A stretch of 64,000 nt of DNA from Psammoneis japonica (lineage: Eukaryota). The stretch covers positions 248,001 to 312,000 of the forward strand of contig QPGO01000084.1 of assembly GCA_008632985.1 (NCBI GenBank), written 5' to 3'. Made by a program: the position numbers and the translations under genes. Numbering within the stretch: the first letter of the stretch is position 1; every line of letters begins with the position of its first letter. The notes under the pieces were generated by a model. The model did no database searches. It had not been told where the DNA came from and saw nothing but the letters and a program-made list of their open reading frames with translations. Below, one piece after another: positions 7,254-55,413 of this stretch.

Positions 7254-7643
7254 GACGCGTTCCAGCTCTAGGTGGGACCTCGTACTACTGAACTGTGACA
7301 TCGATAGTTTTTTGGATCGCACCGTATGTCGCGCACGTAGAATTGTACGAGACTTTTGTGAAATTTTGTATCATTTTGTGGTACACTTATTGAGCGATCC
7401 GTCCAACAACTTTTGACATTTTTTGTTACAGCGCGATTCTATAATGTCTTAAGAATCGCGCAGGGCAGGCGTATTTGCAAAAATGTCGAGTGGCAAGAGG
7501 CATAATTGTACCACAAACTTGGCCGTTTATTTGATGTTGAAGATAAATATATCCGTTAATTAGATTCTCGTACTACGGAGCTCGCACGTAGAATTCTACG
7601 GGCCCAATGTCACACGGAGTCCCACCTAGGACTGGAACCCGTC
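7254..7643. mobile_element. MITE (390 bp), TIR GACGCGTTCCAGnnnTAGGTGGGAC, 4-bp TSD GGAC; least-mutated copy
   Basis: Terminal inverted repeats, GGAC at 7250-7253 and 7644-7647, and full-length similarity to copies at 54280-54669 and 55024-55413. Confidence 0.9.
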
Positions 7644-8849
7644 GGACAACAAGTCACCAGTGCCGCAGATTGTGATGTTGACATTGGGCAAGGGGGACAT
7701 TGATTGTGTGCTGCCACTCTTGCAACATGGGAATGTTGCCCTCCTTGGCAGTCAGGTGACAAGAATCACCCAATGAAATGACCAAGCCAAGACACCGTGC
7801 ATTGGCCAAATTGTCTGGCGGGGTCTTTCACAGCACTCTTGCACTCATGGTTGTCAAACACTCCCTTGGAATGGTGGGTTGTGGCGTGCACAACATCATG
7901 GAGAACCACTTGTTCCTGCTTTTTGAGAAGCACTGGCAAGCTTTGTTGCAGCCAACAACCCCTTTCAGCCCAGAGCTTGTCAAACACCCCTTTTGAAGCA
8001 GCCGCCAATGACTCTCACTTGGCTGCCAAGGGCAGCTCTTGTTGTTGTTTGCTTTGAAAACAAGCTTGACATTTCCAGGGACTTGCAAAGGGCTGCTGTG
8101 GTTGACAACAAGCTCCCAGGAGCAGCTGCAGTGCTGGCCATTTTTTGGGATCTGTTCAGCAGGTTGCTGGTGCTGTGGGTCACTTTGATCATGTGTTCTT
8201 GCTTGGGGTGCCTTGGGTGCATCAGATGTGTCTTGTGATGCAGCAACAGACCAGACTGCTGCTGCCACATGAGGTGCTGATGAAATCAAGAAGGTGCCAT
8301 GTGCCGGGGGTTGGCTGTTGAGAGGTGCTCAGCAAACAACCTGCAAAGATGAGGAAACATTTGCCATGAGCCCACAGCGGTGCTGGGGGTGCCCTTGCTT
8401 CCTTTTTTGTGGCGGCACTGGAGTGTGCTGGGGGAGCACCCATGGCCACTGGCAAGCCTGATCGCCTGATTGGCTCACTTGTTGGAGCGCAATGCAAAAT
8501 GTGCGAAGCCTTCTCGTGGTGGAATGCGAAGAAGGCAAAGTCACAACAACTCACCACAGACGTCACAGTGCACTGTAGACAGACCGATGACGTGCAATGT
8601 TTTTGGCGGGACAGGAATTTGAAAGACGCGTGCATGCGCGCACGCACCAAATTCGAAAAAGATCCATTGTGCATGTAGAAACACTGCCTGATTCTACGGA
8701 GAATCCACTTTGTGGTGCACAAAGTCATGCAGGTTCTACGGAATGCATCAAAAACTCGAGTCATGCAGTGAGTCACAAGCATCACATCGCCACCGTCACA
8801 ACTCAACAGCATTGAGAACATTTGACATTGCATTGACATCATTGGCAGG

Positions 8850-10754
8850 ATGAACTTCACCAAAGGCGCTCTCCCCGCAGTGGCTGGCGGAGCCAACGAC
8901 AAGAACAATGACGGGAGCGACTCGGAGGGATTGCAATCGCCACATTCTTCTGTCGACAAGTTGTTCTCACCGCGTTCAAACAACACCACCGATGAGCTTG
9001 CATCTCTGCGTTCGAATGGTGCCGAGGATGAGTTCGCTTCCCCTCATTCCGCTGGCGCAGAGCAGCCGCTCAACAACGAAAGGCCGCGTTCTGTTGGCGC
9101 TGTGGTTGAAACCGAATCACCGAGTGCTGCCGTGGAAGGAAAGGTGAGATGGTTGAACTCAGCATCTTTTCCGTGCGTGCCAGCACGTCCATCTTTTGCT
9201 CATCATTGCTTGTGTCGCATTGTTTGTTTTCATGGACAGCGTTCTTTCGCCGCCATCTTTCCTGACGCGAACGTGCCAACCCAGGATCGGGCAAAGTGGC
9301 TTTACGAAAACTTCAACATCTTCACTCAAGACGACATGGACAGGGCAGTCAAGGAGCTGACAATCGGAAAAAATGCAAGCTTCGACATGTGCGGAACGCA
9401 GTTGCATTTCAAAGAAAAAGGAAACTCCATGCTGCCAAGGACACTCCTCCGGTCTTCATGTGCCATGGCCAACGTGGCAGCTCAAAAGATACAAAGTGTC
9501 TTCTTGTGCTTCAAGATCCAAACGATTTAGGGCCTGTGGTGGACAAGCACAGGCAAGAACATGTCCGTCATGACCCAAGTGCAAAAAACGAAAAGCGGGC
9601 GGCGTTTTCATCTGAGGTCTCGCATCGAGTCGCTACTTCCAACATCAAGCTTGTGAAAGCACTGTGGAAATTCATTCGCCCACAAGAAGAGGAGCGTGAA
9701 GAGTTTCTCAAGAAGTACAGCAAGAACCAGTCCTCTCCTCTCAAGGCCATCAACCCCGGCGAGGATAGTTTCGAGGATGAAACTGCTGTTGTGAGCACTC
9801 CGCCTGGGCTGCTTCCGGAAACCGTCGCGGAGGTAAGTATCGCGCGTTCATTTAAATTGTCGAGGAGCGATCCCATTTGTCTCACGTGTTGCATTTCGTT
9901 CTCCTTTTTATGCTGTACTGTAGGGCTACTCTGACGATGCCCATTCGTTGCCAGAGTTTGAAGGAATGTCCCGTCGGCAGGTGGAGCATGCCCTCCGGAC
10001 AGCTCTGGAAAAACTCAAGCAATCCGAGAAGGAAAACATCGAACTCAGAAAGGAAGAACACGAACTTCAAAAGAAAGATCACGAGCTTCGAAAGGAAGAA
10101 GCAAAGCAACGTGCTGAAGAACACGAGCTTCGAAAGAGAGATTATCAGCTTCAAGAGGAAGAACGGAGGGCAAACATGGAAGCCTTGAAAGGAACACCCA
10201 TGGCGAAGGCTTCATCGGCTGTGCCAGGAACGCCCATGGCGGTCGCGTCGTCAGCTCCTTTCACTCCGGTTGCGACGTTGGTTCCTGTCACTCCGGCTCG
10301 TTCAAGCACCAACCGCGCTGTCTCTTTTGCAGACCGTCTTAGCGATGCAGCCACGCCTCATTCTGGTACAGGCGTCACTCTGTTGACTACGAATGGCGCT
10401 GAGTACAGCGCCACCACTGCTGCCGCAGCCAACACTGCCCCTGCACCAGCTGACCATGGCTCCAGCGACCGTGACAATGCTACCACTACCACCATACCCA
10501 ATGCTGTCCGTGGCGTCCGCGACCATGACAATACCACCACTACTACCGCACCCAAAGCTGTTCGTGGCTCCCGCGGCTTCAACGTCGGTGACAAATGTCG
10601 TGTCATAAAGGGACAAGCGATGGATGAGGTGGTGGAGATTGTTTGTCAGAAAAAGAACAACTGTTACACTGTGAAGAAACGCGATGGCACAGAGCTCTCG
10701 AAGAAAAAACACCAATTGGAGTTCCTCGATCACTCTCTCAACGATGCCGAGTGA
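8850..10754 (+). CDS. Hypothetical protein with coiled-coil and C-terminal KOW/SH3-like motif; multi-exon, one apparent frameshift (~9490-9520), possibly a pseudogene
   Basis: Probable introns at 9144-9239 (gtgaga..ggacag) and ~9833-9922 (gtaagt..tgtag). Repeated EHELRK heptads. The C-terminus FNVGDKCRVIKG...YTVKKRDG resembles KOW. Confidence 0.5.
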
Positions 10755-11149
10755 TCTGATCCTTGGTGCTCCGGGGGAGAGACGAGACCGTAGAAAGTCT
10801 TATCTCACGGTGAGCGAAAAATATCGTAGATGGCGAGGGGATCAAATCATAGCGTCACGTGCAATAATAGCTCTTCATTTTACGAAAATCATTTGTTATC
10901 TAGCTAGCGTTGATAAAGACGAATGAGCTTAAGAAAAAGTAGACTCCCAACAACTACTAGCTTATGTCATTTGAGTGGATGATCAAAACCGTCTTGAAAC
11001 GACATCATACTCCCATTGTCAATGGTTGCCTTCAAGTTTTCTCCTGAAAAGTACGCATTCTGTCCAAACCATTTCAAGTCGATGCTTGGAGGGGTGGGAG
11101 GGAGCGGTACGGGAGATGGTGTAGGACGAGGTGGGATGATGCTGTCGTG

Positions 11150-13305
11150 AAAAGCCGTGAATCAAATCAAACGCCAACACAAGCACGCATTATCTCGTCG
11201 GTGCACAAAGTGTGATAACTTGTCGTGTAACACTTTCGATTGTTTTTCTTGGTTATGTTTGGCGATCACAGTAGCGTCAGATGCCATTCCTTTCTTGATG
11301 GGCTTGGCAAACTAATTTTCAAAGGCTGATGATTCCTTGCTCAAACAAACAGGGTGCACCCAAGAGGCCATGTGATAGTACGCAAGTAAGTTGTTCTGAA
11401 ATGGCGTCCCGGCGAGAACGATGCGGTGCTACGTCTTGATCGCTCTCAGTCCCTTGTGAATTTGTATTGTGTAGAGCTACTCCTTATTTGTATTATTTGA
11501 TGAGCTTCGTGCAGCACCTCGATGTCAGGTCCAGGGGATTGAAGAGCTGGAGGCGCCAATGCATTCAGAACCTTTACCATAAGTGTCATTGCCGCTGTAC
11601 GCTTTATAATACAACGCTGCACAAAAGCTTGCCATCCTTGACATCTTCTTCCGATGATTGAGCCATTCCCAAATAGAGCGTATTCGTCACCTGGCGTAGA
11701 ATAATCACATTCGTGAGAAGAACATAGGCAAGAAAGGTTTCAATGCATAGACAGAGTTTTATCACAAGAAGCACGCCACCTCTGTCGCTACAAGCTTTGA
11801 TCGTTTTACCCCGAGAAGACCTGTGCACGTCATTCAGATTGGAAGTGTTGGTGTCGGGCCAGCGAGACGCTACCCACTTTCGGAATTCGCTCTCCCGCAG
11901 TTTACCAACTAGTAGCGCCAAGATCGAGAATAAGACAATGTGTCAGAACGGAGATCGTACGCAGCAAAGCAAGAACCCGACCCGATTAAGTGATACGTAC
12001 GATATTGGTTGGGACAACGAGAAGCGCGATACGAATCATAGGGGTACCCGACACCTTCAAAGAAGGGTGATAAAGTAAGGTATGAAGCAAGGCAATCGCT
12101 TGGAGCGACTTGCCAAGTCCCACACTGTTTGCAAGGATACATCCGCCAACGTTCCCGTCTGCCTTTCCATCATTTGCTTCATCGTCGGACGTTGTAGAAA
12201 AGTCACAGCAAACGTTGTCCCACATGAATTTGATCCCATCTACTTGATGCTGAAACGAGGGAGATAAATTTAAAACACTTTTCGAGTGAGACAAAATAGA
12301 ACGTCAAGGTGTGGCAGTGCAGCCTACGATGCGAAGTTGTTACCTCCTTCATTTGATTGGCTAAGTTCGGGTGAACAGAAAGGATTCGCTTCCCATTGGG
12401 TGGAGTCAGGACCAAATCAGACTCGCCGTCGAAAAATCCTTGTTCCGCTTTTAAGCCAGCCTCGCAGATGCAGTCATTGCCGTGTCCTTTCTACCACAAG
12501 ACGCACTTTGTCGAGCTGGGCGTTTAGAAATTGCAACTGGCACATGCTTTCCCCAACTGCCAGCCCTAGGATGCGCAAGCGTTGTGATTGACTCTCCGAC
12601 CTTACGACCTTGTCGATGTAGCAACATTTGGCCACGTCAGACTCCTCCAGAGACGCTATGTCGTTGCGCTCTTTGCTCCCCGGCGGCATCAGCAGTGTTT
12701 TTCGTTTCGGACTCCAGTTTTAAATTCTTTTAGCATTTGGTCTTCGCAACGCAACGCGTGCCGAATGCTCTTGACGCGACTGTCATATGATTCGGGTGCT
12801 ATCGCTTGGCTCCGCCATTGTTTGGAGCCCCTCCCTCTTTGACCAAACCGAGAGATTCCCATCACACAAATGTCTTCAATGCACTTGATCGTGTACATCC
12901 TGTTCACAGATGTTCGACTTCGGCTGTGTCATGCCACCCGGAACCTTGCCATTTTCTCGACCGAGTTCCTTGTCTCGTTTGTCGAGCTTTTGATGTCTTT
13001 GATTTCTATTCGGGCTTGTCTTCTCGAGATTCTGTACGAGCTTTGTAGAATTCCAACAAGGTCTTGTCGCATTCCTCATGTAGTCGCGCATCGGCCTCCT
13101 CTTGAAGTTCCAAGGCATGTTTGGCAACACGAGCATGATGGTCTGACTGCCCCTTGTACAGTCGTTCCATTTTTTCATCCACGACAGTCCTCGATTGGAT
13201 GGTCGGGCGCGATTTATTTTCTGATTTCTTCGAGCTTGAACCCGGGCGTGTCCCCCACAATTCAAAACGTTGAAGCTCCTCTTCTGCCATCTGAAGCTCA
13301 TCCAA
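11150..13305 (-). pseudogene. ATRX/RAD54-like SNF2 chromatin remodeller, degraded N-terminal ATPase half
   Basis: VHPNLANQMKE|HQVDGIKFMW across an intact intron (12250-12343); motif I GGCILANSVGLGKSLQAI; ALLVVP; PGPDIEVLHEAH (degenerate DEAH); RIVLAGTPFQNNL; LHDKLSHFVHRRD. Multiple stops and frameshifts. The upstream limit is uncertain. Confidence 0.8.
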
Positions 13306-13329
13306 AAATAGTCACCAACACCTTTGACT

Positions 13330-14300
13330 CGTCCGTGTCATTTTCATTTGCATCGGCTGTTACAAAGCATTCGTTGCGCAAAGAAAAATGCGCAAGTTTC
13401 ACGAAACCGTCTCGTTTGAAACAGCGCAACCCGGGCTCAGCTGCTTGTCTCTTGCACCGCAGATGGATCCTTTCCTTTTGCAATCATTTTTCCATGCAGA
13501 GCTGGCAGAAATGCTGTTTGACTGCAGTGGCACAGCTGCATGATGTGGCCCAATGCCAACATCATGAGAGGAGGCCAGCAGCGCCCGCTGCGGCGGTGGC
13601 TGGCTGGGCTGTGCCTCGCAGCTGGTCTTGCCAGCACAGCACCACAAACAAGCACATTTCCTTTGACACCAAACCACAGGAAAATGTGCTCTTGATTGCT
13701 TGTCTCTTGTTTTGCAGCAGGCAGATCCTTTCCTTTTGCAACCATTTTTCACAGAGAGCTGGCTGCTGGGCTGCCAAGCAGCGTTGGCACTGCTGCTCAC
13801 AGGCACAGTGTGACAGCAGAACCTGACACCTGATTGCTGAGAGTCAGCCTTCAATCTGTCAAGTGCAAACTTAAATTGAAGTGCACAGCTGTGAGAGCTG
13901 AGAGCCTGAGTCTTGTGGCAAAACCGTGCAAAAAAGGGCCTTTGCGTTTGCCCTGCTTGCTTGGGTTTTTTCCTGCTGTGCCTCTCTTTTCACTGGCGCA
14001 CTTGCCAAAAAGAGAAACAGCACAGTGTGCTGATCATCAGCAATTTTGGCAGGAAAGGTTTGGCAGCAAAAACAGAACATTGGCTGTTGCTGTGCAAGTT
14101 GTGAAAATGCACAGTCTGGGCAGCGGCGCAGCTGCAGGAAGGAGCTTTTGTTGTTCATTTTTGGGTTTTCTCTCACGTCTCTTGCAATTGAATCACTTGT
14201 CACAGCAAAATGTGGATGTCATGCATTGACATTTTTGGCAGGAAAAGGTTTGGTGGCAAGATCAAACATCGGTTGTTGCCGCATCATGGTTGGTTTGTTT
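13330..14300. other. TpA-depleted domain D2 with internal direct repeats (probable DNA-transposon remnant)
   Basis: TA is nearly absent. Repeated blocks gcttgtctcttg..gatcctttccttttgcaa at ~13443 and ~13698, and ttttggcaggaaa(a)ggtttgg at ~14044 and ~14233. Confidence 0.65.
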
Positions 14301-16250: not shown

Positions 16251-17399
16251 GCGAACTGTTAAAGGAAACACTCCTAGGAGCCCTCTAACTCGGAAAGAGA
16301 CTGCTACATGTTGTAGGAATGAGTAATGTGATCTCTCCATCGGTTGAAATGGGCATGGAATAAATATTTAAACTAAACTAAAACAAGATGTGTTGACTAC
16401 TAGTCCCCATCAGATTTGCGGTCTCATGACTCATGCTCCCTCACCACAGCACGGTCGTCAACAAGAAGGAGTGCTGCTGCCTGTGGTACCCTTGGGGGGC
16501 CCCGTGCAGGTTGTTAATAGCCCATCAGCTCTTACAACAGCCATGTTCAATGTTTTTTTACGATTAACATGAAAAACTCGGGGCTTTCTTAACTTGGTGC
16601 TTTCCTAACCAAGGGGGCCTCTTGTTTGCTTGGCGCCCCACCAAGGTTCTGGGCTTGTCTTTTTCATCGAGGTGCTTTCCTAACCTCGCCGTTTTAGTTG
16701 TTAACATCGAGTTTCCTCTCGAGTGGGGTTTCCTGAGGGTGCAGAGAATGGGACACTCTCGGTGCATAACCCAACAGGCGGTCGTCCTACCGTACCGTAC
16801 CGTACCGAGACACTCGTCAGTGCCAGCAATTTTAAGAATGTTTAAACCTGCATGAGAAGAAAGAAGGTATAACTCAGCCAGTTTGGCATCGTTGGAAAGG
16901 GGTTAGCACTTCTTCATGTCTTGCAGAGCGCCGCAACCATACTGCAGTGCAGAGAGGGCGGTCGATGCAGAAGGAGTGAGACGAAAACACGTCGTGCAGC
17001 GAAGATCACGAGACGGCGAACAAGACAATGTGGCCAAATCTTTGCGCTGGCCTGCCTTTTTTCAATTCAAACACTCACATCACGCCTTCTCGGCTTCGAA
17101 TGAGCTTAAACATATATACATTGATTATAACAACAATTCATTCGTGGCGCCAATTTAAACGGAAAAGATGCCTCCCACCGCACCGTGTGCATCGCTTGCA
17201 TCGCTTTTCGCGCCTTCCGCGGCGATTTCAAAAAGAATGGCTGGCGGCATTCTTTTTTATCAACGTGCGCCAAAAAACACATAAGAAGTTTTTAGCGGAG
17301 ACGTTAAACTTTTGCCGTTGAAGCAATTCAAAACCGATGGCGCCTTTCCGACGATTCAAATCAATTGTTTTTGAAATTTTCAAATCAACCCACGACGAA

Positions 17400-20300
17400 G
17401 CGTGTTTGTTTGGGATCTTTGTGCGCCTCGCCAACGCCCTTGAGTCCTCTCTGTTGTGTGGGCACAAACCAAGGGATGGTCAATGACATCAGGAAGTTCT
17501 GGGCCATGCACCAATTGATTGGCAGTGGTGTGGCAGGTTGCAGGAAAGTCTGTCGATGCACGCGCAGGGCTGCAAGGGCTCTGGGGCGACAACAAGACTT
17601 CAGATGTTGGAGTGGCAGGAGGCAAAGACACTGCAACATCAGAGGGGGGGGCAGAGAAGAACCAGCTCCAACAAGGGCAGGGAAAGAAGCAGGATTGGCA
17701 GGGGCAGAGCTGGTGCATTGAAAATGCCGCCAACATCCAGGCCGCCATTGTCCATGAAAAAATGGGGCATCTTTCAAAAGCTGCACCCCGCCAAAGGTGG
17801 GGGTCATGGGAAGAACCCTGGCAGCATGCTCTCCAGCTCGCAAGCCCAAAAAGCAGGATCTGGTGGCTGCACTCTCAAAATGAGGAGGGAGCTGCACTCT
17901 GATGCTGCTGCTTTGACAGGCGAGAGTGGTGGAGACCCCTTCTTGCCTTTGAATCTGAAGTGTGGACAATGTGTTGTTTGCATTGCGAAATGAAACTGGG
18001 CAGTGCAAAAGTGAAAAATTGTGAACAAAATTTTGTTGCATTGATCCAGCTGAACAAACAAAAATGTCAGAGCAAGCAGACTTGCGTGTCAGGTGGGACA
18101 CTGTCACAGTTGAAGCTGTGGGTTGAAATTCAGGAGAAAGTGGGGTGAACTGGGGCAGAGCCAGTGCACAGGGAAAATGATGCTGACATCAAGGCCATCA
18201 CACACCGGGAGCAGGTGATCAAGAAGTCAGCCTGCCAAAGCACAGCGGCAACAGCCTCAGCCAATGGGTGCCCGCCATTGGCAGCTTCTGAGTGGAAGAA
18301 GTGGTGGCAGATGTTGTTGATGTGACAAGTTCTGGGCCTCATCTTGGGCACCTTAGAAGCTCAGCTGTCAAGTTGCCCTCAAACAATTTGCAGAAAATGG
18401 GTGGAGACATCATCGCTGGGTGGGCAGTTTTGTTGATTTCCTCCAAGAATCATGTGGGTGCTTTCACATGCTGAGTGGAAAGGCAAGTGTTGACTCTCAC
18501 TGCTGCTGAGAGCAAGCTTTCTCTGCAGCTTGGATGGCCAGCAGGTGGGAGCTCTCCCCTCTCCCATGCTTGGTGGCACAGCCGCTGCAAGACTTTGCTG
18601 CTTCAGGGTCTTCAGCCATGATTGTCTTGCCCCAGCTGTGCCCCAGAAAACAGCATCATCAACAATGCACTCAAAAACCATTTTCTTTGTCAGGTGGGAT
18701 CTGCGCTGGGCTTTGGCAGTGGTGAGCTGACCAGTTGGTGAGTTGTGTGTGTGGCAGCATCAGGCCAACTGGATTTTTTGGAAAGCTTGCTTTGCTTGTC
18801 ACCAACAGGCAAACAGCAAAATCAAATCAGCGCTTTGAATGGTGTCACATCTTGACACTGATGGCCTCAGCAGAAAAAAATGCCAAAAAAACAACACACA
18901 CATGTCTTGGCAAGTGATGCAAAAGAAAAAGCGCACTTCTTGTTGTCCAGTGGAGTCAGTGTGAACAGTTGGGCAGTGATGATGTGGAAATCAACATGGA
19001 GAGAGTGGGAAAAAATTGCTCTTGATGTGATGGAGAAACAAAGCAATGGGCAAAGCAACAGCAGATGACAACAACAGCCACAATCAAGCTTTGGTGGTGT
19101 TGAGGCATCTTGCACAGAAATTTGGCACAGAGAACATGCTGCTGATTAGAAAGGGAGTGTAAAAAGGCATGACCCCATGACAAAGCCATGCCTCCCAAGC
19201 ACCAACAAAGTGGAGTGTCCCCTTTGACACCAACAGCCAGCAGCTCCACAGCACCAATTAAAACCAGCACAGAGCTGCCTGCCACCCCACAACAGACAAC
19301 TCTGCAGGTGCTTGTGTGGAAAAATTGCCGCCGGCTGGCAGTCAAAATCACAGCAAAGTTGTTTGCCATCAAAGTCAGGCTTGGCAAGTCTTGTGAGAGC
19401 ATTGCTGGGCATCCCTGGTGTTCTCTCATTCTTTTTTGGAGAGCCATCTTTGTTGACAAGGTTGAGATCTTTCAAGGCACCCCTGGCCCTGGCAATGAGA
19501 TTGAGCCAAGCTGGATGGTGCTGATCACTCTCCCTCTGAATTGCAGCTCCAAGATGTTTCTCATTGGCACCTTCTTCATCTTCCACTTCAAAGACAGTTG
19601 TGCAAACTTGACATCATTGTCAACATTGTTGGCAGACTCTCCTTGTGTGTCAAAAACAATGGACAATCTCATCAGTGTGTGGGCTGCAAGGACAGTTGTT
19701 CCCTCAGAGAAGATGCAGAACTCATCACCCTCCTCAGAAGGAACAAATCCTCTCAGTTGCAACCATGTGGATCAGAAATGTTTGTGTCAAGTTCAGCCTC
19801 ACTGTCATGTCCACTGTCAACACTCTTTTTTTGCATGGAGAGAGTGCTTGTTGCAACCAATGCCAGGAAATGTTGCTCACTCAGGCAACTTCATGAAAGG
19901 TGGTCAAAGGATGCTTGCTTGTGTGTGTGCAAGGACAAAATCAACTTGTTGAGAATGCCTGTTGTGCGTGACACACAGGTGCAAAAACAGCGGCCAAATC
20001 ATTGTCCAAAACAAGGCCAGAGAGCACAAGTCTGGTCACACAGCATTTCCCACAATTTTTTTGTAAGCTCCAAGACAGAGGCAGCTTTTCCACTTGTGCA
20101 CCTCACATGTGTGACATGGTTTCATCCTCATTGAGCACTTCTGCTTTTTCACAAAGCTCTGATTCTGCGTCTCCTTGATCGCGGTGGCTTCTTTGAGCTG
20201 GGCGGCAGCTGGCTGCTTCACAGCTTTGCACACAGGTGTGCAGCACAAGGGTTGGCCAATGCTCTCATGAGGTGCACATGAGGATGATGGAGTCATTGAG

Positions 20301-27700: not shown

Positions 27701-27784
27701 CATTGCTCCATCATCGCACTTGCTGTTGCTGTTGTGATTGCTTGATTTGTGGTGTCTATCGCATACACCTACAGCACACATACT

Positions 27785-34205: not shown

Positions 34206-34256
34206 AAGCAGGGATATCCCGGCGGCTTGGGAGGTGCTCTTCATCAGTCTACTACT

Positions 34257-36655: not shown

Positions 36656-36799
36656 CAGTCTACTGTGAGTGCGTTCATTCAGTGTGGCGTGGACGACCTC
36701 CCTCGCACTCGTCTCATCGTGATGCGTCGCGAGCCGCGCGAGCACGCACCGACCCGAAGGTCTCCTCACAACATTGGGATGCAATGACAAATTTGACCA

Positions 36800-39450: not shown

Positions 39451-39469
39451 GCATTGGACATGGTTGTTT

Positions 39470-40550: not shown

Positions 40551-40663
40551 TGTGTTGTGGCTTGGTCAAGATGTGGGAGCTTTGCTCTGAACTTGTGCCA
40601 ATTGTGTGAGCTTCTCATTTGCAATTTCCTTGTTGGTTGCTGGAATCTGCAAATGAGAGGGAG

Positions 40664-41139
40664 AGTCATGGGTCATCTGTCCACTGACCCAAATTCTCTG
40701 TTGTGTTTGCACTTCTGTTGGTCAGAATTCTGCGGCCGGTGGCTTTGGGGATCACAGGCATTGCGTGGATGTTGGGCCAACCGCAGATTGGTTCAGCAGC
40801 ACTTGGAGGATGATTGCTGTGAAAGTGGTTGACCCTGAAGCTTGTGCTGGTCTCCAGCACAAGTGTGCAGATGAACCTCTGTTTGGCACATTCTCAGCAG
40901 ATTTGTTCTGTGCAGCTTGTGATTTGGTCACTGGTGGTTTTGTGAAAGACTTCTGACCAATTGTTTGTTTTGCTGCTCATCAGCAGATGCTCTCTGCTTG
41001 CATTCTGCCAGAGGCATTGGTCTGGAGCAGACATCCAGTTGATGTGTTGGGAAGGCACTTGGAGCTTCATGGACACACAAGCTTTGACTCCACACCAAAC
41101 TGCACGCCACCATTTGTTTCATCCTTTCTCACCATGACA
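40664..41139 (+). mobile_element. Putative copia 3' LTR preceded by polypurine tract
   Basis: Purine run aaatgagagggag at 40651-40663. Terminal inverted ends agtcatgg...ccatgaca. No matching 5' LTR seen in the window. Confidence 0.5.
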
Positions 41140-42549: not shown

Positions 42550-43433
42550 CAATTTCATCATCTTCTCAAAGTTTGCCCCAGCAACAACCTTGTGTGCTCC
42601 TCTTTGAGGTGTTGCTGACTGCTGGAGAACACAAAGAGGCTGAAAAGATTGCCGAAAAGCATTCTGAGGGACGTCAAACACAAGAATGCCATTTTGCTTG
42701 CAGCTGCGTGATTGTCGATTTTCTCAAATTCAAGCTCAGCATGGGCAAAGGGAAGCAACTGAAGGAAACCCTCTGCAAGGCTCTCATGCTTGACAACATG
42801 GTGCTGCTCCTGCTGCTTGCAGATGTTGATCTTGGACCTCCACCCAAGACGGTGGCACAAGGAAGCACAGGTGAAGCCACTTTGCAAGTGCGGTCTGCCA
42901 TGAAGCATTGGGAAAGAACGGCAGAGGTTTTGGACTTGTTTTGCGCAGCTTGCAGTGTTGAGATGGATCCAAGCCCAATGATGGTGTGTCCATTCTATTT
43001 CAGCCAATGCAAAAGGGATGCACAGTCATCAGACTCCAAGAAGGAGAACACAAGGAAGTTGCAACCAACGTTGTCAACATGCCAGGAACAGGGCTTGCAG
43101 ACTTCAAGCTCCCTCCCGGCATGAAGGACCACAATTCATCCAGGATGGTTTGCTGCATGAGCAGCAATGCCATCGCCAACTCATCCTACGGCGAAGCTGC
43201 GTCTGCCGAGTTTCCATGGGGCCTACTTCTGTCCAGTGGGTGAGTTTGCTGCAGCGCTGTTCCGCTTTTGGTGACGACGAAGAGCCCCACGCATGAGCGC
43301 TACAGCATGCTTCAAGCCTGCCAACATGCGATGCTCCAAATGTAAGATTAGATGGCACTGCAGCACGGATTGTCAACGAAAGGGCTGGAAGAAGCAGCAC
43401 AGGATAATGTGCCCCGAATACCTCAAAAAGTAA
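42550..43433 (+). pseudogene. MYND zinc-finger protein remnant
   Basis: C-terminal CFKPANMRCSKCKIRWHCSTDCQRKGWKKQHRIMC (consensus YCS is read as HCS). The upstream helical region is frameshifted. Confidence 0.7.
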
Positions 43434-45700: not shown

Positions 45701-46284
45701 TACCAGTAAAAAACCGAATTGAGTCCTTATGACTGAACTGAGTCCTTATCCGACCCATATGTTGAATCGATCGATAAAATGATGAAAAAACCAAGTAATC
45801 AAACTGTTTTAGTTGCTGTGATAATCTTCAATTGCTGCTGCTTCTGACCATGTGTTTGGATTTGGGTGTTTCAGTTTTCTCCGGCTGCCCGTTGCCGTCG
45901 AACATGGTCGTTTGTATTTTTTGAAGCGGAAACGAGATTCAACAATTCTCATGTAATTTTTTTATCAAGACACGTACATCATATATCCTCACTGCTCCGT
46001 GCTGCTTGCTGATTTGGAGATATGTTGAATTTCTCTGGTACTTGACACGTAGAAATGTACAGGGGGGCCGAATTGAGTCATTGCGCGAAAAAGGTGCAAC
46101 TTTTGCCGCTAGATTAAGCTAATCCCAAGCCCATTTCACAACCGACTGTCATCAAAGAACTCGTTAAGAGATGATGAAAAGCTAGGAAATGCGAAGAAAT
46201 GGTCAGTTTTAGGCCAATGATGGGCAAAAAATGGCCATTCAACACATGGCAAAAATGAGGACTCAACTCGGTTTTTCACCAGTG
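45701..46284. mobile_element. CACTA-like non-autonomous element (~30-bp TIRs)
   Basis: Left end taccagtaaaaaaccgaattgagtccttat versus right-end reverse complement cactggtgaaaaaccgagttgagtcctcat. Internal subterminal copies of gaattgagtc/gagtccttat. TSD is imperfect (tgg/tgt). Confidence 0.6.
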
Positions 46285-46499
46285 TGTTGTCAACCAGCCT
46301 CTGTTTGATGGGAATCCAAATGCATTCTCCACGATTTTGATTGTGTGGCGAGTCATTGCCGATTCAGTCGTCCGTGGCGCCATGTCACGAGCCGATTCTA
46401 CATCCACCACCCATGCGCCGGATTTTCGGCACCAGCTGAGTCAAAGCCGGCGGCCACAAAAAGGCTGAAAAACACAAATCGAAAATGGTGGTTGCACCG

Positions 46500-49400
46500 T
46501 GGTCAGTGCAACAACATGGGTCAAAAGAAAACTTCGTGAACGCAGATGGAGAAAGACCATCAAAGCCAGACCCAGGCATCTCCAATTTGGGGAGAGCCCA
46601 CTTCTGATGAGGACTCAGCACTCGACATGTGAGCATGTTCGTGGTCGCAGTCGGTGGATCAACGACCCCGCCACAAAAGCTTGACAAGAGGCTGGTTGGC
46701 TTGCTTGGGCACAAGGGGAGTCCACCATGGAAGCCACTCAATTTCAGGAAAAAGATCTGCCGACAACAGCAGAAGGTTTCTCAGATTTTTTTGACCATCC
46801 TGAAGACATGGAGCGTGTTGCAGACAAGCTTCAGACAATTTTGAGGAACAGCAACTTGCTGTTTGAGCCAGACTCAAGTGCCGCGGATCTTGACTCTGAC
46901 AGCGATGATGCAGGTGCCAGCGAAGGCAACAATTTTGTCTCTCCACCACCATCCAAGCGCCCCAGAACTGACGAGGACTCCATTGTGGGTCAAGACGACG
47001 ATGACGAATGCGACAAAGATGGCGGCATCAACCGTGTTGAAGATCCTTGGCTCATGGCACAATTGCGGCAATTGGCAAAGGTTGATTTGAGAGCTTTCTC
47101 TGAACTGGAATTTGTTTTGCTTTCAGCGGACCAGAGCAACAGTGTTGGAGACACTGCGGCGATCGTGGAGGCATGCAAGACTCGGGGATTTGAACCATCG
47201 TCCGACACCATCCAGTCTCTCGAGACGATGTCTGTTTTCAAGCTTCGGGCCTCCAGACGGATCATTGAGACTGTTCGTGGTGAATTTGTGGCAACCCAGC
47301 AACACTTCGAACCTTCTGACAATGAACCACTGATTGACTGGCTTGACCAAGTCAAGCAATTTGCAGAAGGCAAGCGATGCGGAGACTGCCACCAACGCAG
47401 CGACTGCGAGCGATGCAGAGAGTCGAGTGAGAGTTTCCTCGAAAGAAACTTCAATCGACTTCAGAATGGCGTGTGCAGCATTGAGGACAGAGCAGCACAA
47501 GTCGTCCGACACGTTCGCCATTGCCGCAACATTTGCTTGTCAAGAATGGGTGGGTTGCTGAATGCACTCGCCCCATTGTTCCTTGGGAGAGCTCTCAAGG
47601 AAGAAGAGTTTGCGCTGGAGTTGACAACTCAAAATCGTGTGCAGCATCTCGACCTGATTGACACTTTCCACCTGAGGTGCAATTTCCAAAAGCACTCTGT
47701 GGTTCAAGATGAATGCGGCAACAACATCATGATTTGCAGTTGCGACGATGACTCCACATTTCATGGTGGCAAGCGTCATGTGCTGCTCGTGACGGCGAAC
47801 TCAGAGGACAAGACACCAAAATTCCATCTTGCAACGACATCGGCTTCCGTGTCAGCGGATGGTGACGGCAACTCTGATCTCAATGTCAAAGCATTGACAG
47901 ATCTTTTTGGAAAAGAGAATGCCCCTCAGTTCTTCCAACACTTTGGCGGAGGATGCTCTGATGATGCTCCTGATGCCTTGGAAACAATGCGAAAAAGTTT
48001 TGAAAAGGCCACGCACCTCATCCCGGAAGAGGCGCGCCTGTTGAATGATGTTGCCAGATGGGCCATTGTTTGGGGCGACCCCTTTCACATTGCAAACTTG
48101 GTGGTCATGTGGGCGTCTCTCGCTGATTTGGAGAAACCGACCGCACCAGCCATCAAGAAGTCCATCACCGACAACTGATGCAGTCATTTTTTGATGCTTT
48201 GAAGGGGAACAGAGGCCTTGCATGTTCTGTTGCAATGGAAATCTGCAAGGAGCATGACTTGCCGACAGTCGTTCCCAAAGCGGCAAGAGAGCGCCAACAA
48301 CGATGGTGTGTCAACCAACGTCAATGCAAACACTTGTTGGAATTGCATGACATGCAGTGTGGCGACACAAGTTTCTTTCTCCTTTTTTGCCAAGAAGTGG
48401 CAAAACATTTGGGAGGATGCCAAAGCAACGCAATGGAACACTGCGGCACGTTGATGAGCATGCCCAAAATTCGACTTGCTCTTCAATTTGAAGCAGAGCT
48501 TGGGTGTTTCTTTGAGCCTGTCATGGCGTGGCACTCCCACACCGGTTTGATCGCGAACATTCCTGGCTTTCGTGTGCTAGAAGTCCGCGCCTTCTTTGTC
48601 AACTTCGAGCTGCCATTTTGGAAAAAGCACGAGTCAAGCCAGCCAAAGCATTCCCCAAGACGTTTGCTGGGCTGTCAGAAATTGAAGATGAGGCGGTGAG
48701 AGATGTGAAACGAGATCAGATCGTCTCTGGTGGAATTGAAGCTGGGTTCAAAGAACTGCTCAAGATGACGAGGCACTGTTTCAGCCCATCCAACATGTCT
48801 TTGGTCCTTGTTGCTGAGCACACACAATGTTTTGCTCGCGCGTTGCTCCGGTTCCTCCATGAAGATTCCGACAACTTGCGATTTGCTGTGGAGGATGCGG
48901 GCATGTCACAATTCAATGAGCCAGCAGGGCTTGAAGATGAGCTCACCAAGTTGCCAGAGGTCGACATTGACAGCGTTGTTCATTGTCTTCAGCAACTCGG
49001 ATTGTCAAAGCATCGTGCTTTTTCCAAAATCAAGAAGCTCTCATTGGATGAAGAAAATGCCAGCCACCTTTTTGATTTTAAGGAGGCACACCCAGCTGTG
49101 TTCACGACATTGCATTCTGCACTTCATTGTTCATTGTCTTCAGCAACTCGGATTGTCAAAGCATCGCGCTTTTTCCGAAAGCAAGAAGCTCTCATTGGAT
49201 GAAGAAAATGCCGGCCACCTTTTTGATTTTGAGGAGGCATGTCCAGCTGCACTCATGACATTGCATTCCGCATTTGGGCTCTTGCCATCAGCAATTCGCC
49301 TGGCGGAGCAAACGATGGCGATGCTCCGAGGGCATCTTGGACTCAAGACTGCAACTTCATCGCACACGAGTGCAGACCAACGCAAGCGGCATTCAATGAA

Positions 49401-50166
49401 TGTTGAGCATGACAACCAAGTGGCAAGGCAGAAGAATGTTGAGAACCGACATGACAAACGCCCGACTGGTGGTTTCAAGCATGAGAAAAGCAAGTCGGAG
49501 CAGCGAATGGTTGGGGAGCAAATGATGGAGTCAATGGGCAGATGCAAGGACGAAGTGTTGGCTGAAGAGCTGACCAAAGCTGAATTTGACAGCATCAAAA
49601 CAAGACACTTGAATGACAAGGGTGTCATGGGGAAAGACAAAACACGGATTGAAGCCCAAAATGCAAGGGCTCTAGAGAAGGTGGCCCAAAAAAAAAAGCC
49701 TGGCAAGATGGCGATCGATTTTGAGATTGAAGGCTCGGAAGAAACTGTGGACAACGACGACAATTGGGCTGCATTCGAGCAAGCCGAGCTCAACAAACGT
49801 CGCAAGGAGCTTGCCACCCAAGCCTTTTGGGCAAGCCAGTCACTGCAAGACATTCTCATGGTGTGCCAAGAAGTCTTTCCAGGGATGCAAAAGCTCCAGC
49901 CAGGTGGCAGGGGGAAGCTCGCCAAGACGGGCATGAAAGCTCTGACAAAAGATTGGCTGTCTGCTGAAGGAGCTGCTGCAAAAACAAACACAGCTGCTGC
50001 AGCTGGACTTGAGTGTGAAAAGTCTGAGTCCAGCGCAGCGAAGCGGAAAGAGGCAATGCAGGGTTTGTTTGATGTGGCTGGGTCGGAAATTGGCCAGCAC
50101 TGCTTTGAAGCTTGCAGCAATGCACGACACACTGTGCTGTGTTTGCTTGGCAGGAATCATGTGTGA
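46500..50166 (+). mobile_element. Degraded DDE transposase, hAT-like, inside TpA-depleted domain D5 (46200-50380)
   Basis: Motif order DDST ... GGCSDDA ... WGDPFHIANLVV (C/DxxH..NL) ... RQQRW ... FGLLPSAIRLAEQ (P.S...E) fits hAT. Frameshifts, including a 151-bp tandem duplication at 48976-49272. No Tyr in the 483-aa ORF 46727-48178. Confidence 0.6.
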
Positions 50167-53100
50167 TCCCAATGGTGTGTGTTGCTTCTCCCCAATCACC
50201 AGTCGCATGCTCAGTGAACACTCGCACGAGATTCGAAGTTGGGTGCTGTGGGGCAGGTCGTCTCGGAGTGAAAAATGTCTGTTTTGTTTTCACAAAGCAT
50301 GGCCTGTCGAGCTGCAATGAGCGTGCCATGATCTTGGGATTGCAAACCACCACAAATGTTGCCACCCTTGCTAATCACCTCTGCTCTAGAGTAGCCCTCT
50401 AGTGGGCCCTCTAGATAGAGGATGCCGCAACGTGCAACGTCCCTGTCATCGCAACGCCTGTAGAAATGGCACGAGCGCTCGTGCAAGTTTTACTCGTGAC
50501 TTCGAATCACCAGTCGAGAATGTATGTTGACTCATTCGATTGAATGAGTCACGACTCGGGAATGAAAATGGATCCATTCGACTAGAATTTATGAAAATAA
50601 AAATAGTTAGACTTTGACCCCCCACTCGAGACAGAAATACACAAGATATGAACCTTATCGGTCTCCTACCCTTTAAAACAATGTCTTGCGAGAATAGAAT
50701 AGGTGTGTATTGTTCATGGTGTGAGGTATTTGAAAATGGAACTAACTTTTCGCGGAGCACCTTTTTACTGTACACGTGAAAGTACGAGGGACGATTTTTA
50801 GTGATAGCTCTATCTAACGCAACCTTCTACTTGCGACCCCAAAAGTTATCGGGAACTTCGTATCGGCTGGAAATGTATTTTGGAAAACCAGGCCTGCGGG
50901 GAGCATTGACCACTTGTCTTTCTTTGTGGGTGTGGGTGTGTGCCGTTGCATGCTGTATTGCCTGTACGTACGTAGGGCCCTACCGCCGGGGCCGGTATTG
51001 TGCGTGGCGGCTGAGTGGCGTGGCCACCGCACCGGTGACGCGGATGACCGTTATATTTGATGTCTCATGCCATTTTTGGGGCTGTAGCGAGGTGCACGGA
51101 CACTCTTTTTTTTCCAATTTATCGCCATAAATAGCGCATCGCACAAACTCACTTATTGTTCGATATGTTTTCCCAAATATGACTGTTTCGTGTAGAATTC
51201 ACGACAAATTATCTTTGTTTATAACTGAATACAGGCATCGCTGATCTAATCGAAATCGCGCAGCGCGCACATCTAGTGTGCAATAGGAATCATTCGGGTC
51301 CTGAGAGTCTATGGCTCCAACTTCCCGTAGAAAGACCTCAAACATAAATTTTATTTAAGACTGGATAATAAATAAATTTGGGTGTTCGCAAAGATTTGAC
51401 TACTTGGACTGCTCAGTTTTTGGTTGTCTCGGCGCGTGCTTCTTCGTGTTATTTGCGCATCGCGACAATGGCGAAACACCGTTCCGCTGCAACCTGCTCA
51501 ACAACGACGTCTCAGTAGCTCGACAAATCATCAAAAACGAACCAATCACACTAAGACGCGTCAAATGGCAGTAATTTGTCGAGCCACTGAACCGAGTTGA
51601 CGAAGAAATGACGATTTGCAGTGACGCCTTCACGTCTTCGTCGACACGACAAATGATGATGCCATGCAAGATCGATGGAAGGCAGATGGAACATTGGATC
51701 CGACGTATTCGACTTCACGTTTGACTTGACAACTCTCCATCATCGTGTAAGGTGGGAACTTTTTGCAGTGCGCTGTCTCAAAACATGAACTTTGCTGCGT
51801 GCCCTCGTTCGATGTGCGCACGTTGAGTGAAAAGCAAATTAAAAATTGGCGTTTCGGCCAATGGCATGACCCTGTGGACAAGATTCTCCTGAACGTGCCG
51901 CCAAGAAGTGCACCTCTTCCGGGGTGGCTGGAGCAGGTGATGATGAGAAGTGAGCACTGAAGTTCACACTAGACCAGAAGCAACTGCCAGTTACGACCAC
52001 AATGAGTTTTGTCAATGGAGTGTCAGTGTTGTTTGCATTTCAGCAGTTTGGTTTATCTGGTCATAGAACCGTCCAAGGGTGAGCAAACACAAGGAGTTTG
52101 TGGTTGCATCTTGCTTGATGCCGCACTCTGAGGTTCCAAACACTGGAAGCATCAGAACAAACTAGATCATCAAAAGCACTGTGCAGCACAGGCCGCTCGT
52201 CACTTGGCACAGTCACACTTCAAGAATGCCATTCACCACCACATGTTGCGTTTGGCAAGTTGCAAGTCATGCTGGATGGATTTGATCTGGGCCACGCACT
52301 CGTTTCTCAACAAACTCAACGAGCATCGACGACAAGGCCAACTGCTCAAGCTTGACGAGAAGAAGTGTTTCGAGTTCAGAGATGAACTTGAGGTCCATGC
52401 CCAAGGGATCCAACCAGGAGAAACACTGCTCTGTTAAAAACCATTCTCCTGAAACAATGCGAGGAGTTAAAAGGAAGGAGTGTCAGCAGCAGGATTGGCA
52501 TCAATGCAAACAAGTTCTTCTAAAAAATTTCGTCCTCTGTGTCCACTGACATTTAATGTGCAGCACTGAACAATGCACAGTCCTCTTCTGCCTGCACTTG
52601 CCTTGTTGCTGCCGTGTCAATGACGATGGCGTTTTAGTCTCTCGGCAATTGTGCCCGTTGCTCATCATCTTCTCCTTGTGTCGTTGCATTGTTTTGGGTT
52701 GATTGATTGATGAGTGCTGATGACAGCGCGAGAACTGAAGCCGATTTTTTAGTCGGCAGAAAATTTGTCTTAAATGTGCATTTTGAATGTGTTTTGATGA
52801 TGGGGTCTTTCAGTGCGAAGTTGGAGCCATGGAGTCATCACGTGGAAATTGTGCAGGAGAGCACTAAAAGACAATTGTCATCAGTCTGTCCATCCGTCCG
52901 TGTGCGAATGTCAACTTCTCGGGAAATCAATTGAAATGCTGTCTGATTGACGGCATTTTGATCCACACAGTGAAGGCCAGTGCCATCAACCAGACAGCAT
53001 TTCAACTGAGTTCCCGAAAAGTCATTGGCTCCAATCACTCTCTCGCATGACATTGTGTGCATTTCCACACGATTTTGTGTTTTTCCTTGTGCAAAATGTC

Positions 53101-53435
53101 AATTGTGACCCACCCAACATTTTCGAATGACTCCTGTTGCATTGTTTTTCATGTTGTTTCCACAAGCATTGCATTGCTGATGAACCCAAACAATTTTGTT
53201 TCCACATTTGACCGCAAATGCAGCGTTTGTCATTTTCATGAATGAGGTCCGTGAGACATGAAGACACGTCGGACATTTTTCTGCATGCGCTGCTGACATC
53301 ATCTGTTGCTGTTTTAACCAAGCCTTCGACTCCAAACGAGGCCGGTGTCAGGCAGTTCTGACGCATGCCAAGAAGTGCCAGTTCCTCACCACGGAGATGC
53401 TCACCAAATGCTCGCCGCATCTGTTTGCATCAGTT

Positions 53436-53773
53436 GATGCATTCCAGACGCAGGTGGGAATCCGTGTGACATTGGGCCCATGGACTTCTGCGTGCGAGCT
53501 CCGCAGTAAAATCACACGGCAATTAAAACGTCAATGATCGCCAACAGAAAATGAGGCAATTTTGCGAACGCACAAACTTGCACATGATTGAAGTGCATCA
53601 TTTTTTACTTGGCCAGTTGCACTCTTCAGACATTGAAGAATGTGGCTGGCGCATTGTTGTTTCTACAAATTTGTCATGCAAAACGTCTGGGGTGCGAAAC
53701 ATGCGACGGATGACAAAAATTGTTGTTGTCACACGTCAGCACTGCGAGCTCCCACCCAGGGCTGGAACGCGTC
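53436..53773. mobile_element. Diverged member of the GAC-TIR MITE family, TSD AGTT/AGTC
   Basis: Ends gatgcattccagacgcaggtggga...tcccacccagggctggaacgcgtc; shares tccgtgtgacattgggccc with the other copies. Confidence 0.7.
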
Positions 53774-54279
53774 AGTCGCGCGAATGCTTCCCGCCCCACC
53801 CGACCCCCTTCACACCCTTCCTCATCGACGCCCAAATTTCGCCAAGTCGAAAATTCCACTGTGCTGTGGCGCACTGCAGAGCAATGGCGATCGACTTGAG
53901 ACATCACACACTGAGCCGCACGTGGAAATCCACTGAGATGACTTGATGTGTTTTTCGTGTGAGTCGCCTTGGCATCTGCGGCCGTTTCTCACAACTTCTT
54001 CCAGATTTAAAACAATGGAAGCAGCACCATGCGACAACATTGAGTCCATGTGATCATGTCAGGTGAAGCAAATGGCAAAATGGTGTGGACTTGTGGCCAA
54101 AATGGACTTGTTGCATTCACAGGATTGTTCGTGCACCATGCAAACTCAGTGCATGAGGCAGCCAAACTGGATCCACACGACACACCAATGAGCTCAAAGA
54201 CCAACTTAAACATGGAGGATTTAATCGGCTCATTGTCACGCAGTTTGATCTTAGACTGAGGGGTCAAAATGGCCCAAGA

Positions 54280-54669
54280 GACGTGTTCCAGGTCCAGGTG
54301 GGACCTCGCACTGCTGAGCTGTGACATCGACAGTTTTTTGAATCACGTCGCATGTCCCGCACGCAGATTTCTACGTGATTTTTTCGACATTTTGTGTCAT
54401 TTTATAGTGCACTCATTGAGCGATCCATCCAACAACTTTTGACATTTTTTGTCACAGCGCGATTCTGCAATGTCTTAAGAATCGCGCAGGGCAGGCGCGT
54501 TTGTAAAAACGTCGAGTGGCAAGAGGCACAATTGCACCACAAACTTGGCTGTTCATTTGATGTTGAAGACAAATGCATCCATTGATTAAATTCTCTTGTT
54601 GCGGAGCTCGCACACAGAATTCTGAGGCTCCAATGTCACACGGAGTCCCGCCCAGGGCTGGAACACGTC
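54280..54669 (+). mobile_element. GAC-TIR MITE copy 2 (TA-mutated), TSD AAGA/GAGA
   Basis: Colinear with 7254-7643 over its full length. Confidence 0.9.
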
Positions 54670-55023
54670 GAGAAAAGGATCTAAAACTTGACAATTGACA
54701 GCTTCTGAAAAAACTCCACAAGTCTGCGATTGCAGCACTGGACAAAAGAGAAATGAACTTCACAGACTGACCAACACATGACAGCTCGATTGCTCTTCTT
54801 TTTGTTGTCATGCGGTTGAAATTTGATGCCGTTGCGGCCATCATTTTCATGCTCTGTGTGCCACCATGTTGTCGATGCGTGTTGTTTTCTGTTTTCTGGG
54901 CATTGCCGTCAGTTTTGGTCAGTTTTGATGGGGGGGGGGATTGTGTTTGGTTTGAAAGAGTGATGTGGCAGTTCGCACATGACGGAGAGACTGATGCAAC
55001 GCATTCAACGAAAAAGTCGTGGT

Positions 55024-55413
55024 GACGCGTTCCAGCCCCAGGTGGGACTCCGTGTGACATTGGGCCCGCAGAATTCTGCGTGCGAGCTCCGCAGCACGAG
55101 AATTTGGCCAATGGACACATTTGTCTTCAACATCAAATGAACGGCCAAGTTTGTGGTGCAATTGTGCCTCTTGCACCTCGACATTTTTGCAAATGCGCCT
55201 GCCCTGCGCGATTCTCAAGACATCACAGAATCGCGCTGTGACAAAAAATGTCAAAAGTTGTTGGACAGATCGCTCAATGAGTGCACCGTAAAATGGCACA
55301 AAATGTCAAAAAAATCACGCAGAAATCCATGTGCGCGACATGCAACATGATTCAAAAAACCATCGATGTCACAGTTCAGCAGTGCGAGGTCCCACCTGGA
55401 CCTGGAGCGCGTC
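55024..55413 (-). mobile_element. GAC-TIR MITE copy 3 (inverted, TA-mutated), TSD TGGT/TGGC
   Basis: Reverse complement is colinear with 7254-7643. Confidence 0.9.

Follow-up and report, generated by a model that had tools for sequence, protein, structure and literature searches.

Copies of a miniature inverted-repeat transposable element and loss of TpA dinucleotides in a genome region of the diatom Psammoneis japonica

Why does one copy of a transposable element carry 28 TA dinucleotides when another copy of the same element, some 47 kb away, has kept almost none of them? The question is raised by a 64,000-nucleotide stretch of the Psammoneis japonica genome (GenBank assembly GCA_008632985.1, contig QPGO01000084.1, positions 248,001 to 312,000 of the forward strand), which contains several copies of a miniature inverted-repeat transposable element (MITE). 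This whole stretch is called the window, and all positions refer to it. Over the whole window TA occurs at 0.38 of expectation, CA and TG at 1.4. The evidence described below makes it very probable that a directional hypermutation of TpA, acting at the level of DNA and limited to certain regions, operates in this genome.

TA sites in the MITE copies

The following copies were found (TSD, target-site duplication; o/e, observed/expected ratio).

7254..7644, plus strand: MITE copy 1, 391 nt, 28 TA, TA o/e 0.92, TSD GAC at 7251-7253 and 7645-7647
54280..54670, plus strand: MITE copy 2, 6 TA remaining, TSD AGA
55023..55413, minus strand: MITE copy 3, in opposite orientation to copies 1 and 2, 1 TA remaining, TSD CCA
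53435..53773, minus strand: MITE copy 4 (related), TA-depleted, TSD ACT

The element is a MITE, a DNA transposon: it is short, non-coding and very abundant, its ends are imperfect terminal inverted repeats of ~25 nt, and it is flanked by a 3-bp TSD. Since each copy has its own 3-bp duplication (GAC, AGA, CCA, ACT), copies 1 to 4 represent four separate insertions. The first-pass annotation had correctly recognized three related copies, but the element is 391 nt long and has a TSD, copy 3 lies on the minus strand, and the fourth relative had been overlooked. Copy 4 resembles the others only at the termini (~83 nt and ~75 nt) and has an interior of its own. Copies 1 and 2 could be aligned without gaps over 390 nt (85.1% identity). 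Alignment of copy 3 in the forward orientation failed; it is alignable only as the reverse complement, again without gaps, the identity then being 85.9% with copy 1 and 89.2% with copy 2. Copies 2 and 3 are inverted relative to each other and lie 354 nt apart. A sensitive self-comparison of the window recovered no further paralogous or long terminal repeat pairs for before/after tests.

At the 28 TA sites of copy 1, copy 2 has kept three and changed 25 (15 to CA, 9 to TG and 1 to CG), whereas all 28 are changed in copy 3. Thus 52 of the 53 changed sites in the two copies became CA or TG, corresponding to a single hit per TA with the one CG as the sole exception. The estimate of the first-pass annotation, about 25 changes at ~28 sites between copies 1 and 2, nearly all to TG or CA, was therefore accurate, its five quoted examples are found as written in the alignment, and copy 3 had indeed lost TAs as well. 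The changes are concentrated in the TA dinucleotides. Of the 56 letters inside TA, 26 are changed in copy 2 and 28 in copy 3, all of them A>G or T>C, whereas the same transitions affect only 6 (copy 2) and 7 (copy 3) of the other 161 A/T letters of copy 1 (Fisher p = 8e-13 and 1e-13, respectively). As had also been claimed, most of the 27 CpGs of copy 1 are retained (18 in copy 2, 22 in copy 3), and the process appears near-saturating and yet leaves the copies alignable: the alignments are gapless and transitions at the other A/T letters amount to ~4%.

At 19 of 24 sites, copies 2 and 3 were altered in the same way (binomial p 0.007). At three of the sites that they share, the opposite outcome holds 33-44% of the depth in the deep sequencing run X1 (see below), which indicates that the sequence context does not dictate the choice between CA and TG. 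Most likely, a progenitor that had already been mutated but could still move gave rise to both copies 2 and 3, or the two copies have homogenised each other.

Some other features of the family were also recorded. At 54403-54406 (element positions 124-127) copy 2 has TATA where most of the family has TACG; apparently a CpG was converted to TpA by transitions on both strands, giving a new TA in a mutated copy. Metagenome contigs were scanned with a 19-nt invariant motif of the MITE, but no locus with further MITE similarity was found. The 16 loci obtained were bare matches of 19-27 nt (one of 27 nt, 93%), which were ascribed to chance and were not used.

Direction of the change

Both CA and TG are seen across the copies at 10 of the 28 TA sites. 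Five of these read CA in copy 2 and TG in copy 3, at two further sites the outcome in copy 4 is opposite to that in copies 2 and 3, and at three more (7389 A>G, 7428 A>G and 7548 T>C) contigs of sequencing runs are opposite to copies 2 and 3. The presence of CA and TG at one and the same site points to a TA ancestor, from which one change per lineage is needed. A CG ancestor is disfavoured because in that case copy 1 would need double changes at just those sites, while 27 CpGs survived.

Family variants were read from contigs of public runs, one deep (X1) and others shallow (X2-X4), all from one sample. Summed depth on the MITE was 1e4 to 6e5, compared to ~105 in the right flank (at least 3,000 pieces aligned); although summed depth is not equal to copy number, the family is clearly very abundant. 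The shallow runs presumably assemble only the commonest variants. Their contigs covering 7475-7642 differ from copy 1 in four letters, of which three were identified, none at a TA. The contig covering 7254-7406 differs in 15 letters; 14 of these were identified and only one, at 7370, falls on a TA of copy 1. Altogether, TA is present at at least 20 of the 23 copy-1 sites covered by the abundant X2-X4 contigs. The claim that copy 1 is closest to the ancestral state holds for its TA sites, which match the abundant contigs. It holds less well elsewhere: copy 1 has lost a family TA at 7378-7379, where it reads TGTG and most of the family has TACG, and it has private letters at 7484, 7555 and 7563. 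The private changes of copy 1 are mixed in kind and are not CpA-to-TpA.

In one X1 contig the MITE is missing and 12 other letters connect 7239 with 7648. This stretch differs from the expected empty site in four letters, and the contig extends for just 23 nt on one side; it may be allelic, or a paralogous copy of the flanking repeat.

The surroundings of copy 1 give further information. The only TAs in the 1,954-nt stretch between 6622 and 8576 are the 28 of copy 1, the flanks being TA-free for 646 nt and 948 nt. This bears on the opposite direction, that of classical repeat-induced point mutation (RIP), under which CA or TG would be ancestral and copy 1 or its subfamily would have gained TA by C-to-T changes at CpA. 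Copy 1 itself would pass published RIP thresholds (TpA/ApT 28/29, (CA+TG)/(AC+GT) 48/56). RIP, however, would raise TA, and a RIP-like gain cannot explain the flanks of copy 1, which are without any TA. The ten sites with both CA and TG, the abundant shallow-run contigs and the private changes of copy 1 also speak against the RIP direction, and so do the TA-poor blocks described in the next section, in which TpA/ApT is 0.04-0.2.

Protein-coding sequence offers a further test. Tyrosine codons are TAY, histidine codons CAY and cysteine codons TGY, and the open reading frame (ORF) at 38708-40153, located in the TA-poor block 36901-43300, matches the Copia reverse transcriptase RVT_2.

39455..40150, plus strand: Copia reverse transcriptase (RVT_2) remnant, no Tyr in 232 aa, YxDD motif reads HVDD

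The 232-aa piece, which has relatives in Cylindrotheca closterium and Epithemia, was compared to 27 relatives. Tyrosine makes up 3.4% of the residues in the relatives and is absent from the piece, and the six conserved Tyr columns read His in three cases, Cys in two, Trp in one and Tyr in none. Since Tyr was replaced by both Cys and His, both TG and CA must have arisen in the Copia sense strand. These replacements, too, run counter to the RIP direction, which we consider extremely improbable.

Some observations weigh against a TA-to-TG/CA hypermutation. Three full copies alone cannot polarise the 19 sites where copy 1 differs from a reading shared by the other two, a point which would also suit the RIP direction, and copies 2 and 3 are one partly shared experiment, not independent replicates. 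Across the 12 TA positions listed for X1, the C-or-G letter accounts for 33-95% of the summed depth and has the majority at 7. Most members of the family must thus be mutated, and a consensus by simple majority would show TG/CA at many sites, as the RIP direction requires, and hence would mislead. The runs probably derive from the sample behind the assembly of the window, so they are not independent of it. On balance, the direction of the change is from TA to TG/CA. This is the direction proposed by the first-pass annotation, which had regarded a family consensus of TG/CA as the critical observation; the sites with two outcomes, the X2-X4 contigs, the TA-free flanks and the Tyr columns of Copia all uphold it.

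TA-poor blocks and their contents

TA depletion in the window is not restricted to the MITE copies. As many as 22 of the 64 1-kb bins contain four TAs or fewer; the chance of this for one bin, at the mean TA density of the window, is 3e-7. The following blocks (unstranded) were delimited.

4801..7250: TA-free block left of copy 1, 6 TA, TA o/e 0.04, CG o/e 0.25, CA 1.71, TG 1.72
7651..9700: TA-free block right of copy 1, 8 TA, TA o/e 0.07
13101..14300: TA-free block, 5 TA, TA o/e 0.07
17351..27750: largest TA-free block, 10.4 kb, 22 TA, TA o/e 0.03, CG o/e 0.20, ORFs without Pfam match
36901..43300: TA-free block with the Copia fragment, 11 TA, TA o/e 0.03, CG o/e 0.30
46251..50350: TA-free block, CpG largely kept, 4 TA, TA o/e 0.02, CG o/e 0.69, two long ORFs without Tyr
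51601..56400: TA-poor block with MITE copies 2, 3 and 4, in which the patch 54201-54600 (copy 2) is partly depleted, TA o/e 0.30

The blocks total 31.4 kb, about half of the window, and have sharp edges. Copy 1 stands out between the first two as a TA-bearing island that matches the limits of the element, whereas copies 2 and 3 share their depletion with the DNA that separates and surrounds them. For the block statistics the rest of the window amounted to 31.3 kb; in these figures the normal DNA does not include copy 1, and the patch of copy 2 is assigned to the depleted class. Per kb, there are 2.9 TA in the blocks vs 46.7 in the rest, 26.2 vs 55.9 CG, 105.7 vs 74.4 CA and 107.7 vs 68.6 TG. 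All pyrimidine-purine pairs taken together are nearly equal (242 vs 246 per kb). The deficits of TA (43.8) and CG (29.7) add up to 73.5 per kb and the surplus of CA+TG is 70.4; this balance indicates that the lost TA and CG reappear as CA and TG. The pattern is not one of WA-to-WG changes because AA and AG are undepleted (AA o/e 1.27 in depleted vs 1.10 in normal DNA, AG 1.01 vs 1.00).

CpG did not follow TA in all blocks. Two stretches, 46251-50350 and 54601-56400, are TA-free and yet have a CG o/e of 0.69-0.89, while in three other blocks it is 0.20-0.30. The low CG of these three is read as a separate, slower decay of methyl-cytosine. Strong CpG loss suggests old methylated DNA, and TA is slightly rarer than expected everywhere (o/e 0.68 in the normal DNA of the window). 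Both facts would suit an explanation without a dedicated enzyme, in which a slow context-dependent bias, or selection against TA, emptied the blocks over long times in silenced methylated chromatin. A slow bias is difficult to reconcile with the loss of 89-100% of the TAs from copies which changed ~4% of their other A/T letters by transition and kept 18-22 of 27 CpGs, with the two TA-free stretches of nearly normal CpG, and with sharp edges and an intact MITE inside a block. Nor would it predict the strand-coordinated events described below, or the fact that mutations of the same spectrum appear in the course of an experiment in the alga Bigelowiella natans, in some lines only, at ~6e-7 per site per generation (Mettrop et al., 10.64898/2026.01.13.699255). 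We consider an origin without a dedicated enzyme improbable.

RNA editing of the ADAR type could also yield A-to-G changes if transposon transcripts were edited and the products fixed by reverse transcription. One affected element is indeed a Copia retrotransposon, and U is favoured before the edited A, as mentioned in the discussion of the same preprint (10.64898/2026.01.13.699255). Hyper-editing of this type would be confined to the transcribed strand of retroelements. The MITE, however, is non-coding and has inverted ends and a TSD, so it moves as DNA; the Copia sense strand carries both TG and CA (Tyr to Cys and to His); and copies 2 and 3 are depleted together with the intervening and surrounding DNA. 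Since a DNA transposon and its surroundings were hit, and CA and TG occur together in the Copia sense strand, the process must act on DNA and strand-specific RNA editing is excluded as its source. An ADAR-type origin thus has hardly any probability.

The depleted DNA that could be assigned, i.e. the Copia reverse transcriptase, the MITE cluster and a repeat flank of high depth, is selfish DNA. The high-depth flank is at 7104-7195 in the block left of copy 1, where summed read depth is 3,791-37,080 vs ~105 in the single-copy flank. In a Pfam scan of 117 ORFs of the window, no match was obtained among the 83 ORFs from depleted blocks. The two long ORFs at 46685-50163 (497 and 465 aa) lie in the TA-free block in which CpG is largely kept. 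One of them, 46685-48175, contains no Tyr and has 92 relatives of up to ~1,300 aa; no Pfam family was found in the 10 relatives scanned, and the ORF may encode an unclassified mobile-element protein. ORFs with diatom-named relatives sit in normal-TA blocks. These include a JmjC-like ORF with a relative in Cyclotella cryptica (44% identity) and a TLC-domain ORF, whose named relatives are all diatoms (Cylindrotheca, Seminavis, Fragilariopsis, Pseudo-nitzschia, Grammatophora and Attheya) and whose best matches have 39-41% identity over 87-89% of the query.

Two segments called by a hidden Markov model, 9951-10300 and 28501-29050, were rejected as blocks and dropped from the statistics: they are TA-poor but have no CA/TG excess, and the deficit is compositional. 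The regions 9951-10300 and 28370-29176 are Lys/Ala/Glu-rich and similar low-complexity coding sequence, and a scan for TA only flags both falsely. The ~2.1-kb element at 34404-36514 has long inverted arms (577 nt, 88.6%) and a TA o/e of 0.9-1.2; it is repeat-like and was spared by the TA process. At 57383-58964 a 525-nt unit is present three times in tandem (98-99% identical), within the long ORFs at 56740-60311 and in normal-TA DNA; this is a recently expanded coding repeat. Substitutions are of the ordinary mixed kind both in the inverted arms of 34404-36514 and in the tandem repeats at 29664-29843 and 57383-58964. A strong GC skew (+0.33) was found at 38001-40000, with CA o/e 2.57 vs TG 1.48 in the bin 38001-39000, just upstream of the Copia reverse transcriptase; it may be due to strand-asymmetric conversion or to a G-rich insert. 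The block with the MITE cluster also contains a 109-nt near-palindrome at 52914-53022 (77% self-complementary).

Proposed mechanism and comparison with known systems

The copies and blocks demonstrate specificity for TpA, the direction of the change, its block structure, hits on both strands and a rate far above CpG decay. The process is fast relative to other decay because almost all TAs were lost while most CpGs and other A/T letters stayed. As proposed here, a DNA-level hypermutation would act on chosen regions, transposon islands 1-10 kb long, and would turn nearly every TpA in the target into TpG or CpA by one A-to-G change on either strand. It would be self-limiting, as a hit site is no longer TA and the remaining sequence stays alignable. 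Copy 1 would have inserted into an already mutated block, retaining the TA sites of the family, whereas copies 2 and 3 would later have lost their leftover TAs in place, mostly on one genomic strand. Copy number alone does not seem to be the trigger, because among 3,000 family pieces listed 1,174 are at least 95% like the intact copy 1, which itself remained untouched in a mutated block. The activity was probably episodic, and its targets appear to be regions, not repeats as such.

After the split of copies 2 and 3, 12 of 14 events were A-to-G changes on the genomic minus strand (p 0.013), a hint that a single event is confined to one strand over a distance of 1.1 kb or more. The TAs that survived in the blocks differ in their neighbours from those in normal DNA: YTAR accounts for 47 of 87 (261 of 1,498 in normal DNA) and RTAY for 3 of 87 (453 of 1,498; p 8e-18 for the bias). 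The agent thus has a flank preference, RTAY being sensitive and YTAR resistant. A simpler rule, that TA followed by a pyrimidine is preferred, predicted the strand at 10 of 13 informative sites in copy 2 and at 7 of 13 in copy 3, and is not claimed.

In the natural substrate of TadA/ADAT enzymes a U precedes the A. The agent could be an adenine deaminase of the ADAT/TadA kind, converting adenine to inosine, as proposed for B. natans; we consider the chances of this assignment to be about even. Its support is indirect and consists of this substrate preference and the ADAT2-like candidate of B. natans. The same process with the same direction would result if the T of TpA were attacked, e.g. by TET/JBP-type oxidation to a base mispairing with G; 5-formyluracil is such a base. 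A-to-G on one strand is indistinguishable from T-to-C on the other, and the flank preference, being symmetric, suits both readings. No evidence contrary to a thymine chemistry was obtained here; we nevertheless consider it rather unlikely, although clearly less so than the other alternatives.

Some points weigh against the proposal. As TA equals its reverse complement, a thymine-directed chemistry would account for the data just as well, and the strand coordination rests on 14 events. Recognisable transposon protein is found in one depleted block only, thus the term transposon islands is partly conjectural. The Tyr test on the ORF at 46685-48175 was weak, with four aligned Tyr-majority columns reading F, C, F and N.

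A wider interpretation can be offered, tentatively and at slightly less than even probability. A diatom enzymatic defence would erase TpA in strand-coordinated bursts, as an adenine-directed mirror of RIP. Its chemistry would be shared with a rhizarian alga and would be old and widespread in the stramenopile-alveolate-rhizarian (SAR) group, and the enzyme would be a natural TpA-specific DNA adenine deaminase. Such an enzyme would be of interest for base editing. If the near-total footprint on ordinary transposons in a diatom holds, the defence would be no curiosity of one alga, and it could influence the landscape of repeats, the GC content and the annotation of genes in a major group of ocean primary producers. 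TA-free DNA lacks TAA and TAG stops and therefore contains long false ORFs. The loss of Tyr codons, TAA/TAG stops and TATA-like signals would probably disable elements while creating no new stop codons, in contrast to RIP. The MITE pair provides a reliable record of the process, and a high-copy MITE with intact and mutated copies offers a built-in ancestral reference for specificity, flank preference, strand coordination and timing.

Several known systems can be compared with the process seen here. RIP, which requires a RID-type cytosine methyltransferase and acts before meiosis in ascomycete fungi, is similar in being transition-only, dinucleotide-specific, near-saturating and DNA-level, in targeting transposons and in leaving copies alignable. 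It differs in that its C-to-T changes at CpA make TpA and stops, whereas the process described here destroys TpA, removes TAA/TAG and raises GC. Correspondingly, the RIP indices of the depleted stretches are far from those of RIP, with (CA+TG)/(AC+GT) at 1.7-2.1 beside the low TpA/ApT, and the many listed pieces close to copy 1 do not fit a system in which all sizeable duplicates are mutated. The APOBEC/AID deaminases of animals are alike in context-specific deamination directed against selfish DNA and in strand-coordinated clusters, but their target is cytosine, changed C-to-T in TC or WRC contexts, and adenine or TpA specificity is not known among them. Polymerase eta at WA sites in somatic hypermutation likewise produces A-to-G changes with T or A before the mutated A; unlike here, it would deplete AA too.

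TpA hypermutation is so far the subject of one report, a 2026 preprint on a single chlorarachniophyte, B. natans, whose long-term footprint as described there is modest. A full-text literature search gave no report of TpA hypermutation in diatoms, and in the main text of the preprint a look-up of terms turned up neither the words diatom or stramenopile nor any passage that deals with a flank preference, with coordination of strands or with other species. According to that text, in mutation-accumulation lines of B. natans giant-virus and virophage regions mutate at the rate given above, the changes in integrated viral regions are all from TpA to TpG/CpA and occur in some lines only, and the de novo TpA rate in some lines is raised ~1000-fold (10.64898/2026.01.13.699255). 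The genome has 124 clusters of TpA-poor, CpA+TpG-rich windows, the depleted genes are enriched in reverse transcriptase and DDE domains, and an ADAT2-like deaminase was proposed as the agent (10.64898/2026.01.13.699255). When the cut-offs of that study were applied (at least 3 consecutive 1-kb windows, TpA rho <=0.43, CpA+TpG rho >=1.52; 10.64898/2026.01.13.699255), 26 of the 64 1-kb windows qualified, with clusters at 18001-28000, 37001-43000 and 52001-56000.

As far as the preprint describes them, the two systems differ in host, a chlorarachniophyte (Rhizaria) there and a diatom (Stramenopiles) here, and in targets, giant-virus and virophage inserts there and ordinary transposons, Copia and MITEs, here. 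They also differ in extent: TA o/e is 0.45 in the nucleocytoplasmic large DNA virus region of B. natans and 0.02-0.07 here, where the process is known from its sequence footprint and this footprint is near total, covering about half of the 64-kb window. In the window a flank preference, strand coordination and a concomitant loss of CpG are observed. The systems are alike in A-to-G/T-to-C changes at TpA only, in clustered TpA-poor windows, in selfish or foreign targets and in non-constitutive activity. By this comparison the process in P. japonica appears to be of the same kind as the TpA-only hypermutation of B. natans.

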